Source: Eledone cirrhosa (taxonomy: Eukaryota). From it: a stretch of 64,000 nucleotides of DNA. Shown here in pieces: positions 12,299-48,764 of the stretch (its first letter is position 1; each line of letters opens with the position of its first letter). Made by a program: the position numbers and the translations under genes. The notes under the pieces were generated by a model, which searched no databases, was not told where the DNA came from, and saw only the letters and a program-made list of their open reading frames with translations. The stretch is taken from NCBI GenBank assembly GCA_964016885.1, contig CAXHJY010001421.1, positions 29,260 through 93,259 on the forward strand, written 5' to 3'.

Positions 12299-12348
12299 GA
12301 ACTGCAGAGACTAAGGTTTCTGGGTATAACCCTTCATCAGTACAGTTC
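12299..12348 (-). ncRNA. Type I hammerhead ribozyme motif
   Basis: Minus strand: gaactgta-CTGATGA-a-gggt/tat/accc-a-GAAA-c/ctta/g-TC-tc-tgcagttc. Confidence 0.7.
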
Positions 12349-12421
12349 ACTGTTCACCTGCCAACTGTCAGAGCTAGTGAAAATATATATTTCCTAAAAT
12401 ATACACTGACTGATCGGCCTG

Positions 12422-12495
12422 ATTTGCATATTAGCAGACTAGCTGATCATTCAGATCTGCATATTAGCAGATCCACTGATCAGCCAGATTTGCAT
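12422..12495 (-). promoter_or_regulatory. Three octamer (ATGCAAAT) motifs at a 33-bp period
   Basis: ATTTGCAT 12422-12429, ATCTGCAT 12455-12462, ATTTGCAT 12488-12495. Confidence 0.5.
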
Positions 12496-12577
12496 ATCAG
12501 CAGACTGGCCAGTCAGTTTCCTGTATACAAGCGATTAATGGCCAGCTTTGCCATATTAAAAAAAAAAAAAAAAATGT

Positions 12578-12657
12578 AATTATTTCCTTACCGAAGGTTT
12601 CGAGAAACTAAATGATTCTTGCAGAAACATCTAGCTGGTTCATCAGGCAAAACAATT
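12578..12657 (-). ncRNA. Degenerate hammerhead motif with a long stem II region
   Basis: Minus strand: aattgttttgc-CTGATGA-...-GAAA-cc/ttc/gg-TA-aggaaataatt. Confidence 0.5.
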
Positions 12658-12661
12658 ATAT

Positions 12662-13010
12662 ATGTAGGTGTCACGATTACAAGTACCCAGCGCACACTGT
12701 AAAGTGGTCATGTAGGAGACACAGCAAAAAGCACCCAGCGCACACTGTAAAGTGGTCATGTAGGAGACACAGCAAAAAGCACCCAGCCCACACTGTAAAG
12801 TGGTCATGTAGGAGACACAGCAAAAACCACCCAGCACACAGTGTAAATGTGGTTGGCATTAGGAAGGGCATCGACCTGTAGAAATCTAACCAGAAATAGT
12901 CCTATATGATGAAGACAGGATCACCTGACCCAACTTGTCTCTAATGGGACAAACCTGTCTAACCCATGCTAGCATGGAAAATAAACGTTAAACGATGATG
13001 ATGATGATGA
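12662..13010 (+). mobile_element. RTE 3' UTR fragment with a 48-bp internal tandem repeat
   Basis: About 3.5 copies of gcacccagcgcacactgtaaagtggtcatgtaggagacacagcaaaaa, then GGAAGGGCATC...AAACGATGATG tail. Confidence 0.8.
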
Positions 13011-13472
13011 TCCATCTATCTATTTATCCACCTAATTATCCATCTTTCTATCTGTACACCTACCTATCTATCTCTTTATCCAGCTAACTATCAATATAAT
13101 CTAACTAACCTACCTATCTGTCTATCATATCTGTCTATCAACTGGTATATCAGTCATTTTGACTGTCTATCTATAGCAATCTATTTACCAATGTAACTAT
13201 CTTCAGACATGAACAACGATAACAACAACATCAATATGCAATGAATCCCAATATCTGTCTAAAAATAGACAGATACATAGGTAGAACAAAGTAATTGTAA
13301 TTCAATAGATATATGTTTGATAATGACTATGGAAAATATAGGAAAGAAATATTGTAATTGATATAAATGAATCTAAAAAGGAAATTCAAACATTCAAGGA
13401 TCTTTACAGAGATATTAAATTATTAAATATATTCTTGCTATAAACACTGTCATTTTTGACTGATACTATGTT

Positions 13473-13678
13473 ATCATCATCATCATCATCATCATCATCA
13501 TCATCATCATTATTTTACATCCGCTTTTCCCTGCTTGCAAGGGTTGGATGGGTCCTATTCAGCACAGCATCTCTCCATCCGTCATGGTCCTTTGTCATCT
13601 CCTCCGTGAGCTTCAGCAATCTGAGATCAGCTCTCACCACCTCCGCCCGTGTTTTTCGTGGTCTTCCTCTACTGCTAG
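13473..13678 (-). mobile_element. RTE LINE 3' end whose ORF runs directly into the tail
   Basis: Minus frame SRGRPRKTRAEVVRADL..WRDAVL; tail CCCTTGCAAGCAGGGAAAAGCGGATGTAAAA(TGA)n. Confidence 0.85.
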
Positions 13679-13745
13679 TATATAGATATACATATATATG
13701 TAGGTGTATGTATATATATATATATAGTTATATATAACTATATAA

Positions 13746-44921: not shown

Positions 44922-45094
44922 TTAATGGCCAACTAAGTAACATCTAGGATGCACTAAACATCTTGATCTACCAAGGAATAATGTGGACCTATAACCAGGG
45001 ATGGTGCTACTATTAAGGCTTACTAGGTTGCACTATGCATCTAGATCTACAGAGGAATACTGTATATATGTATATGTGTATAGAATTCTAGAAA

Positions 45095-45475
45095 ACTGTA
45101 AATGTGGTTGGTGTTAGGAAGGGCATCCAGCTGTAGAAAACCCGCCAGACAGTCCTATGCGAGCAAGACAACCACTCTTGCCTCAAGTGGGAAAATCCCG
45201 TCCAAACCTATGCAAGCGTGGAAGATGGACGTTAAACGATGATGATGATGATGAAAACCGAAACAACTCTTTTATGGAGAGTTAGTTAAAGGAAAACGAC
45301 CTCCACATAAACCTAAAAAGAGGTATAAGGATTCATTGAAAGCCTCTTTGAAAGACGCTAACAGCTCTGCTGATACATGGAAAAGCATAGCTGCTGATTG
45401 TAATAAATGGAGAAAGACTGTACATGAGGGGAAAGTTGCCTTTGAAGCATCTTTGAAAAGTACTTTGAAGTGAAT
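45095..45475 (+). mobile_element. RTE tail followed by a BovB-like RTE C-terminal fragment
   Basis: PKQLFYGELVKGKRPPHKPKKRYKDSLK..W. Confidence 0.8.
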
Positions 45476-46689
45476 GTGACCCAACGGGTCATGAGTGGTC
45501 TATATATATATATAAGAATAACAATAAGAAAGATTCTGTGATTACACACTACGAATGTGGAGAGCTTTCTCCTGCTTACTCCTGTTTTTACAAAAACAAA
45601 TTTTTTACTGAACATATATATATACACACACACACACATATATATATACTTATGTACATATGTGTATCACTATGTATGTATGGATATTTATATGTATCTA
45701 TGTGTGTATATCTCTAGGTATGTACATGTGTATGTACTATATATGTATGTGTGTATATATGTATGTATATGGTACAATAGGACAAAGTACTCAGTCATAC
45801 AGTAAACATTATATAATTGAATATCCTATCACAGAATCCAAATCTCAGTTACATGAGACACAGTGAGATGTTCCTACCCCACCACCACCACTGCTTTCTA
45901 TTTCCTTACTCATTGTCATCATCATCGTCATCATCAGCATCATAATCATCATCATCATTATCATCATCATCATCATTTCATCATCATCCTTATTATCGTC
46001 ATTTTCATCATCTTCCTCATCATCATTGTCTGCAACATCATCATCATTGTCATCATCATTATCATCACTGTCATCATTAACATCATCATCATCATCATTA
46101 TCCTTACCAACACCACCAATACCACCACCATCACCATCATCCTCAACACCACCACCACTATCATCATCATCATCACCATCATCATCATCATCATCACCAC
46201 CACCACGACCACCACCACCACCACCATCATCATCATCATCATCACCACCACCACGACCACCACCACCACCACCATCATCATCATCAACACCATCATTTTC
46301 ATCACCACCACCATCATATCATCATCAATATCATCCTCACCACCACCACTATCGCCATCATCATTATGACTAGCATAATCATCACAAACGTCATTAGTGA
46401 CAAAAAGTATAAAGGAAAAATTGAACCACAGTATTTAACTGGTACTTTAGTTTACCAACCTCAAAAGGACGAAGTGGATCTTTATATATATATATCTCTA
46501 TCTAAATATATTGAAGTGAAATAGTTAAATTTTAATTTAAAAAATTAAAATTTAACTCTTTCAGTTCCTTATATTTCTTTTATGATATCAATTTAATTTT
46601 TACCAGAATAACCAAGAATTTTGACAGATTCAGTAAAGTTACAAATTTCATCTTCTTCTGCCCCTCCTCCTCTCCTCCTCCTCCTCCTC

Positions 46690-46980
46690 CTCTTCGCAGA
46701 GTCCTCAAACATTCTTTCCAGCAGGTCCTGTCAGAAGCAACTGTCTCCAACTGGATCCCCAAACTCATGGATGTTATCCAACCATCTTGCTCAAGGTCTA
46801 CCCTGGGTTTCCTGCCTTTTGGTTTTGTCAGTAAATCTGTCCAGCAATTCTTTCCTGAGACATTCTAACCACATGCCCACAGTACCGGAGCAGTGATTTC
46901 TCAATTTGGAGAAGTGGCGGCTGTTCCACAAGTGACTCTCATCTCAGAGCTACGCACTCTATTGAGTAATGTTACTCCAA
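46690..46980 (-). pseudogene. RTE C-terminal fragment
   Basis: Minus frame IEKSLLRYCGHVVRMSQER. Confidence 0.7.
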
Positions 46981-47515
46981 ATAACTAACTTGATTAACAA
47001 ACTTTTCTTACATAAAATTATGATGGAAGGTTTAAGTTTGAATGCAAAACACTTTAAAATAAATGGCGTTTTATCAGAAAACCAGCGCTACTTTCAGGCA
47101 CCTTGTTAAAGAACCACAACAAATACTGCAACTGTGTTTTGCCTGATCCTCTGGTGATTCTGTTTTATTTATCGATCAAACAGTTGACAAGATCCCAGAC
47201 CTCATTCACTTATTGAATTCATCAAATTGGACCAAGGATACTAAGTCTCCATTGGTCTTTCCATTGCTGATATTATCCGCAGGTCATAACTCCTGACAGA
47301 TGTTATATATATATATATATATATATATATATATATATATATATATATATATACATATACATATATATATATATTGTTATACTTGGGGAGGGTCATATTG
47401 TTATAATATTGCCAGAAATATATATATATATGTGTGTGTGTGTATATATATATATATGTGTGTGTGTATATATATATGTTTATATATATATGTTTATATA
47501 TATATGTATATATAT

Positions 47516-47915
47516 ATGTATGAAAAAGGTAAACAGAAATAACAACACAATCGGTACAATATATGGAAGGAATATATTAGGTTAACGCTTGAAATAGCAG
47601 GAAGAGGGTCTTAACGTTTCGGATGCTAGTCCTATTCTTTCTTCTGATGAAGGACGAGTGTCTAAAACGTTAAGACCCTCTTACTGCTATTTCAAGCGTT
47701 AACCTAATATATACCTTCCATATATTGTACCGATTGTGTTGTTATTTCTATTTACCTTTTACATACATATATATATATCAACGCTTACGTGGATCTCTCA
47801 AAATTCGTTGGATTTTCTAATTTGATTTTCACCTTGAAACTGGATACCAACCCGGAGTACACCTGAACTTCCACCAGGAGATCTTTTGTATCATTGAAGT
47901 TTTCTTTGCTTCTTA
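47516..47915 (+). mobile_element. Fold-back element (~115-bp arms) with a minimal hammerhead plus a tail
   Basis: tctt-CTGATGA(47644)-aggac/gagt/gtct-aAAA-cg-TT-aaga; the other arm keeps CCGAAACGTT; tail has CCGGAGTAC. Confidence 0.78.
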
Positions 47916-48208
47916 TATGTATATATATATATATATATATATATATATATATATATATATATATATATATATATATATATATATATAATTAAGTTAAAAA
48001 TGTACATCTACATATGCATACTGAAATACTAGTGTGTATATGAATACACACACGTATACATATGCAGATGTAACAAGTCTTTCACTGGTTGCTTTACTGT
48101 GAGCAACCCAGCTATTCTGTATGTAAACACACAGACAAACCGGTTTTTAGAGTCATACTGGTTTTCGAGGAAACACCTTCCCTCTATTCTCCAGAAAGCC
48201 AGACAAGG

Positions 48209-48253
48209 AATATTGAACTAGTTTCGTTGTTGTTACAACTCATCAGCAATATT
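48209..48253 (-). ncRNA. Intact type I hammerhead ribozyme
   Basis: Exact reverse complement of 48720-48764. Confidence 0.88.
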
Positions 48254-48719
48254 TACCTATCTACCGGCCTTTCTGGAGAATTGTAAAAGCACATATCGTT
48301 ATATGCTTTTTCTATGAAAATTAGTAGTGGGCAGACTAATTTGCATAGAGTGTGAGTACGCACCGGTTTGTCTGTGTGTTTACATACAGAATAGCTGGGT
48401 TGCTCACAGTAAAGCAACCAGTGAAAGACTTGTTGCATCTGCATATGTATACGTGTGTGTATTCATATACACACTAGTATTTCAGTATGCATATGTAGAT
48501 GTACATTTTTAACTTAATTGTTTAAGCGTCAGTCATACAAAAGTGAGTTACAAACGAAACGAAATTTAATTTCGTTTCGTTATTTGTTTTTATCGTCTCC
48601 GCTGAACCGGTGCGTACTCACACTCTATGCAAATTAGTCTGCCCACTACTAATTTTCATAGAAAAAGCATATAACGATATGTGCTTTTACAATTCTCCAG
48701 AAAGGCCGGTAGATAGGTA

Positions 48720-48764
48720 AATATTGCTGATGAGTTGTAACAACAACGAAACTAGTTCAATATT
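48720..48764 (+). ncRNA. Intact type I hammerhead ribozyme
   Basis: aatattg-CTGATGA-gttgt/aaca/acaac-GAAA-ctag-TT-caatatt: perfect stems I and II, palindromic stem III, GUU site. Confidence 0.88.

Follow-up and report, generated by a model that had tools for sequence, protein, structure and literature searches.

Coats, Zhang and Epstein reportedly described in 1994 an octamer and a proximal sequence element (PSE) as promoter elements of newt satellite 2. For this hammerhead repeat, a small nuclear RNA (snRNA) promoter used by RNA polymerase II (Pol II) has been reported (PMC2220036). The main texts of two studies on animal retrozymes describe no promoter and do not address transcription of these elements, the word "promoter" occurring twice in that of Cervera and de la Pena 2020 (PMC7229834), both times for T7, and 0 times in that of Li, Clavereau and Pollet 2026 (10.64898/2026.07.22.740005). 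A layout of partial tandem and inverted copies is on record both for Penelope-like insertions (PMC8557442) and for retrozymes lacking long terminal repeats (non-LTR retrozymes; PMC7229834; 10.64898/2026.07.22.740005). Here, a 64,000-nt stretch of Eledone cirrhosa DNA (the window, meaning this whole stretch) is considered, in which three hammerhead elements, termed A, B and C, carry the octamer ATGCAAAT upstream of the ribozyme as part of a putative promoter module. A literature search found no published report of this module, though subscription papers and supplements may contain one.

Perfect octamers are located at 12422–12429 (minus strand), 25977–25984 (minus) and 48627–48634 (plus), and coordinates confirm that they lie, as originally noted, 81, 85 and 92 nt ahead of the hammerhead core word CTGATGA on the ribozyme strand (cores at 12340 minus, 25891 minus and 48727 plus). 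Read directly from the sequence, all three cores continue as type I hammerheads, with stem II, GAAA, a short stem III and the stem I partner coming after the core in each case. The conserved motif is the 12-mer TATGCAAATKAG, the octamer being part of it. Among 20 representatives, obtained from 193 units at 80% identity and picked on the octamer with their flanks unselected, the extended word reads TATGCAAAT(G/T)AG, with T at position −1 in 20/20, A at +9 in 18/20 and G at +10 in 16/20, whereas, of 26 background octamers that have no core downstream, only 1 had the T..KAG flanks.

The same 12-mer occupies a fixed place in small-RNA genes of the host. It is found at −76, −77 and −78 in U6 genes (loci L079, L080 and the C19 array, the array having the octamer version ATGCTAAT), at −77 in the best U6atac match (as ATGGAAAT) and at −77 in the single RNase MRP gene, with a TATA at −30 in all five genes (three U6 types, U6atac and MRP). 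A profile of these five genes scored 11.8–22.8 bits in 10/10 representatives, at a background share of at most 2e-5, and the orientation of the element in the repeats is that of the host U6-class genes. The 12-mer was not at that place in 12 distinct U1 upstream regions, 9 distinct U2 upstream regions and RNase P, which mostly carry NNATCAGT at −59 to −69 instead; most of these host genes have a distal word TTACCTCCCTT near −257 to −288. The predicted PSE of Schistosoma japonicum U6, at −71, begins with GTGCGAATGAG and is 9/11 like ATGCAAATGAG (PMC5460494). Because of its position in host U6, U6atac and MRP genes and its likeness to the S. japonicum PSE, the word is likely a U6-class proximal element that happens to contain the octamer, and POU factors may still bind it. 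Of the original prediction of an internal promoter/enhancer module combined with ribozyme trimming, a promoter whose short leader is trimmed is supported by position, orientation and the host U6-class match; the proximal place of the motif speaks against a distal POU enhancer.

In the microsatellite-rich 3-Gb genome as a whole, the octamer followed after 75–100 nt by CTGATGA was counted 25,958 times, a total that includes an unrelated repeat without hammerhead fold (15 of the first 100 matches listed) and is inflated by arrays, versus 552 times with the octamer flipped, the pairing thus being enriched genome-wide. A reversed-pattern control gave 83 matches; since reversal puts a CG into the octamer, this figure was judged too low and the flipped octamer was used instead. 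The subset with a full hammerhead pattern numbered 2,248, against 19 reversed-pattern controls. Within the window, 4 of 17 CTGATGA words have an octamer 81–92 nt upstream, one of these pairs (48339/48246, minus strand) being an inverted duplicate of C, while the octamer alone is not enriched (10 versus 5.99 expected; 8/100 shuffles reach 10). A sample of 1.05 Mb fetched irrespective of the octamer contained 30 hammerheads of the lineages; by a loose filter, the upstream region counted as intact in 22, of which 15 had a perfect octamer, and at a flank identity of at least 0.8 the octamer was perfect in 15/17 and had one mismatch in 2/17.

Most hammerhead-like motifs of the genome are without the octamer, and the module is confined to one retrozyme superfamily, in which it is real and selected. 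The hammerhead-like pattern had 164,921 matches genome-wide versus 18,386 controls, leaving about 146,000 motifs above control. Among the first 100 listed (contig C1), 10 had a perfect octamer at 70–105 nt, and none was found in the three largest groups of that census (17, 15 and 12 rows). The 18 best Rfam Hammerhead_1 matches, all of one family, had 0/18 perfect octamers within 260 nt, and at least five other hammerhead-like motifs of the window (2389, 34603, 34681, 42087 and 42095) had no octamer within 160 nt.

The 20 representatives form three lineages unlinked by BLAST (C/E/G/A, F and B, the letters being our family names) and three singletons, with octamer-to-core spacings of 77–99 nt. 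With the motifs removed, lineage profiles still scored other lineages above the best shuffle (e.g. 9–12 bits versus 4.1 for the spacer), in a test made with mononucleotide shuffles and with a body region that can include microsatellite. Because of these cross-lineage scores, A, B and C probably belong to one diverged superfamily, in which the module of the window would be a single inheritance, probably kept under selection. The elements had been described as showing no other similarity, which was not confirmed: A and C are linked by BLAST through intermediate subfamilies, and B matches both weakly by profile.

A TATA word follows the element after 40–48 nt in 16/20 representatives, mostly after 42–45 nt, and the geometry of the host genes places the predicted start within the 5′ arm of stem I, 8–27 nt ahead of the core. 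With such a start, folding of the hammerhead and removal of a leader of about 40–60 nt would still be possible. It is likely that the module functions as a promoter for one polymerase or the other. More specifically, and with more reserve, we lean towards the octamer-bearing 12-mer and the TATA acting as a U6-type promoter (SNAPc/TBP), read by RNA polymerase III (Pol III) and starting RNA inside the hammerhead 5′ arm.

Several observations weigh against such a U6-type promoter. Among the host genes, the 12-mer is carried by only three promoter types in 32 U6 matches and by 1/8 U6atac matches; 12 dispersed U6 matches, L092, L093, two array copies with an insertion and 7/8 U6atac matches are without the element at that place, and they look like retrocopies or disrupted copies. 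In the U6 array copies L085 and L086, an insertion of about 190 nt between the TATA region and the gene shifts the element to −270. RNase P is a type 3 gene in vertebrates, and the host RNase P lacks the element, so that the equation of the element with Pol III is not airtight. The RNase P RNA gene (L149, G000:C24:12936134) has a U1/U2-type AAATCAGT and two distal words but no 12-mer, yet a T8 at the gene end.

The geometry also differs. The distance from the element to the first TATA is 46–48 nt in the five host genes, as against 40–45 nt in 13/16 repeats and 46–48 nt in the rest, i.e. the spacer is about 4 nt shorter, and the TATA of C is weak; human U6 is inactivated by a 5-bp change of spacing (PMC7949045). 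In C and E-type monomers, runs of T5–T7 lie some 40–55 nt ahead of the following octamer, beside the recurrent insertion end, a position that counts in favour of a U6-type promoter. The T6–T7 runs of the abundant E-type family and the two T5 and two T4 runs of C, on the other hand, would be expected to halt Pol III short of the next hammerhead. Downstream of the core (within 350 nt), T5+ runs are no commoner than A5+ runs, each being present in 13/20 representatives. The host distal word TTACCTCCCTTG (at most 2 mismatches), corresponding to the distal enhancer word of type 3 Pol III promoters, was not found in C and E-type monomers. In most subfamilies the motif falls within predicted RNA hairpins, the lineages are probably homologous and so not independent cases, and a metagenome scan for the 12-mer with the hammerhead pattern gave 41 matches, none combining stem I, stem II and TATA, and hence no cross-species support.

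Some of these points suit a Pol II promoter better, in which a POU-bound octamer (or a SNAPc site) and a TATA would drive reading through the T runs, as reported for newt satellite 2. The shorter element–TATA spacing and the T6–T7 runs of the abundant family are consistent with it, as is a YCA word at +16 to +18 (C at +17 in 17/20, A at +18 in 18/20), 26–27 nt before the TATA, which resembles the TCAG of host U1/U2 genes at a comparable distance before TATA. Octamer-like words occur three times in tandem in element A (12488–12495, 12455–12462 and 12422–12429). Host genes tolerate the variants ATGCTAAT and ATGGAAAT, whereas the octamer of the repeats is kept perfect, and in humans both polymerases use the H1 promoter (PMC7949045). 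Nevertheless, among the host genes compared (U1, U2, U6, U6atac, RNase MRP and RNase P) the 12-mer is found only in the Pol III class, its orientation is strict, and the host U1/U2 element profile fits only 1/10 representatives (family A, 7.5 bits), so that a Pol II promoter is considered rather unlikely. A U1/U2-type element (NNATCAGT at −59 to −61) in the repeats was rejected on the same profile, fitting only family A. Host U1 and U2 genes (L099–L118, L269–L298) have a TATA-like word near −30, whereas vertebrate Pol II snRNA genes are not known to have one.

The word could also act as RNA, either as a hairpin arm in a self-paired circle or as a handle for a Penelope reverse transcriptase. 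It is strand-specific, and most subfamilies have it within a predicted hairpin. The monomer is highly self-paired (fold z −12.9 and 0/100 shuffles for C, the monomer analysed), and in C, E and E2 the 3′ ends of insertions lie 33–37 nt upstream of the word. The predicted pairing nevertheless varies between subfamilies, each octamer position being paired in 5–16 of 17, with different partners and registers, and the C of the octamer is predicted to be unpaired in C and E. Within lineages, the octamer arm and its partner arm differ at rates of 0.10 and 0.15, a comparison that is uninformative. As the word likewise holds a constant position in host promoters, which are not transcribed, a role as RNA element is improbable, while a dual role of the word, promoter and RNA element together, is possible. 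That the word is a passive ancestral remnant, perhaps of a captured U6-type flank, without present function would agree with the apparent homology of the lineages and with its lack in several abundant hammerhead families, but is very improbable, the word having been kept while neighbouring sequence diverged beyond BLAST detection among three lineages.

By their sequence organization the elements are non-LTR retrozymes, i.e. type I hammerhead repeats that occur in tandem and whose insertions are of the Penelope style. The tandem monomers are non-coding (466–469 nt in C, 403–538 nt in the E-type) and long arrays are present; a clean tandem of A, B or F was not found among the loci examined. Many dispersed copies of C are identical over 237 nt, and its 31 distinct 3′ ends, nearly all abutting AT-rich microsatellite, fall at monomer positions 333–335 (18 ends), 259–265 (12) and 246 (1), while E-type 3′ ends (2–3 each) occur at the corresponding place, about 37 nt before the next octamer. 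The tandem and the inverted copy of C are bounded by (TA)n tracts, and this layout, a partial tandem with an inverted truncated copy and a fixed 3′ end in microsatellite, is the one that characterizes mobilisation by Penelope-like elements (PLEs). A Penelope-type open reading frame (ORF) with reverse transcriptase and GIY-YIG domains, a putative helper, is present in the genome at L240; no octamer was found within 2.5 kb of the hammerheads that lie downstream of three PLE-like ORF fragments (L240, L223 and L214). Insertions that exceed one monomer in length and have the hammerhead junction intact imply that the template was circular or an uncut multimer. In four contig runs of unknown kind, the presence of the element and its tandem joint were seen and nothing further. 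At L154:1249–1500, a U6atac retrocopy adjoins a family A retrozyme in opposite orientation.

With a U6-type promoter, transcription would start about 8–27 nt before CUGAUGA, the ribozyme would remove the short leader and Pol III would mostly terminate at the T run preceding the next promoter, a single insertion thus comprising promoter, start, hammerhead, body and T run. Propagation would need RNA spanning two hammerheads, produced by read-through or by Pol II use of the same promoter; once the next hammerhead in the tandem is reached, a unit-length RNA with the promoter at its 3′ end would be released. This RNA would then circularise, a Penelope-type reverse transcriptase would prime 33–37 nt before the next promoter, and copying past the hammerhead junction into (TA)n targets would let each new insertion regain an upstream promoter. 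We propose tentatively, with less than even confidence, that the retrozyme superfamily captured a host external U6-type Pol III promoter and has kept it through retroposition by circular permutation, thereby avoiding the loss that an upstream promoter usually suffers when a sequence is retroposed. If true, the genome would hold of the order of 20,000 SNAPc-type promoters and the U6 proximal element of the lineage would be identified.

Of the window copies (Table 1), C has a strongly folding ribozyme, its hammerhead reaching z −5.8 versus shuffles and matching Rfam HH9 with 38.6 bits (E 3e-6), short of the gathering score (52). Those of A and B fold no better than shuffled sequence (z −0.4 and +1.1), the stem III of A is unlike that of its relatives and probably weakened, and B has a mismatch at the first stem I pair; for these reasons A and B are probably decayed copies.

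Table 1. Positions in the window of the retrozyme copies and their parts.
Feature	Position	Strand	Remarks
Element A, single retrozyme copy, probably decayed	12171–12556	−	84–87% BLAST matches to L067, L177, ~380–410 nt; lineage common to C
A, proximal 12-mer TATGCAAATCAG	12419–12430	−	sequence
A, TATA-like word	12382–12389	−	40–42 nt after octamer start
A, type I hammerhead	12299–12352	−	core 12334–12340, GAAA 12317–12320
A, T17 run upstream of octamer repeats	12558–12574	−	possible end of preceding unit
Element B, single retrozyme copy, lineage B	25727–26004	−	71–84% BLAST matches to L121, L145, L148, L176
B, 12-mer TATGCAAATGAG	25974–25985	−	sequence
B, TATATA	25936–25941	−	43 nt after octamer start
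B, type I hammerhead	25846–25900	−	core 25885–25891; predicted GUC site ending 25855
C, inverted, truncated copy	47982–48368	−	octamer 48339–48346, core 48240–48246; 387-nt arm, 99% complementary to 48605–48991
C, 1.5 tandem copies of 467-nt monomer, ending at (TA)n tract	48362–49060	+	232-nt direct repeat, spacing 467
C, 12-mer TATGCAAATTAG	48626–48637	+	identical to 12-mer of host U6 gene L080
C, TATA-like word TATAAC (weak)	48670–48675	+	43 nt after octamer start
C, predicted transcription start, within stem I 5′ arm	48700–48704	+	TATA+30 to element+77, inferred from host geometry
C, type I hammerhead, extended stem I	48692–48787	+	core 48727–48733; predicted GUU site ending 48757; palindromic CTAG stem III
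C, first T5 run (possible Pol III stop)	48973–48977	+	sequence
C, second T5 run and recurrent 3′ insertion end	49054–49060	+	18/31 ends at monomer position 333–335
D, unrelated hammerhead-like repeat, long stem II	49552–49800	+	GTGCAAAT at 49552–49559 not part of module

For a further core at 49696 (element D), a one-mismatch word upstream had been noted. This word, GTGCAAAT, is indeed found at 49552–49559; however, 0/3 relatives have an octamer at that distance (one of them carries ATGGAAAT at −162) and stem I is non-canonical, so that D was rejected as a member of the module. In its hammerhead-like region (49671–49802; also in L229 and L165), stem II is branched and 60 nt long, stem III measures 12 bp and the stem I region departs from the canonical form. 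Two octamer-less families are represented in the window by hammerhead pairs inverted back-to-back (42081–42101 and 34597–34687), and in the family of the former TATAAATA is often present about 30 nt before the core. Another octamer-less family (the 311-nt tandem array L220, G000:C1:1239862–1244279, and L198) has in the 3′ arm of stem I the word TTACTTCCCTTG, identical to the distal word of the host U6 gene L080; in the 311-nt tandem it lies about 257 nt upstream of a putative start, deduced from a TATA that precedes the core by 50 nt, and is thus placed like the distal words of host U1/U6 genes. A U1-type proximal element in this family had no support by profile. Fragments of the long interspersed nuclear element type are located at 28858–30168 (reverse transcriptase and PHD finger), 43536–44543 (reverse transcriptase) and 16419–17267 (an unassigned endonuclease-like frame).

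The module gives a precise, testable prediction of promoter, start site and polymerase for animal retrozymes. It also defines a host U6-class promoter element, of use in designing tools for small-RNA expression in these animals. Thousands of sites competing for snRNA transcription factors are suggested as well. The promoter of Schistosoma SM-alpha is of the tRNA-like A/B-box kind, unlike the upstream element and TATA found here. In other respects SM-alpha is similar to the module proposed here, with a promoter ahead of the hammerhead, Pol III, and tandem copies needed to propagate (PMC6765202, PMC2220036). Type 3 Pol III promoters (U6, 7SK, H1) share the upstream element and the TATA about 30 nt before the start (PMC7949045, PMC5460494); the elements described here differ by a spacing about 4 nt shorter, by having no distal word that was found, and by being carried in a mobile repeat. 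The type I hammerhead, short non-coding tandems, self-paired monomer and coexisting Penelope-like elements are as reported for metazoan non-LTR retrozymes (PMC7229834; 10.64898/2026.07.22.740005), the monomers here (403–538 nt, C and E types) being longer than those of coral or mussel retrozymes. With the pseudo-long terminal repeats (pLTRs) of PLEs they have in common a partial tandem with an inverted 5′-truncated copy, AT-rich targets, internal priming of reverse transcription and a (here putative) promoter inside the repeat (PMC8557442, PMC11167929), but, unlike PLEs, the monomers are without ORF. Newt satellite 2, the nearest known parallel, is likewise a tandem hammerhead repeat with an internal snRNA-type promoter; there a Pol II promoter is reported, in a vertebrate (PMC2220036), whereas here the word is of the host U6/U6atac/MRP class, with a TATA and in proximal position, and the idea of an snRNA-type promoter in a hammerhead repeat would thus be extended to an invertebrate and to the U6 class.

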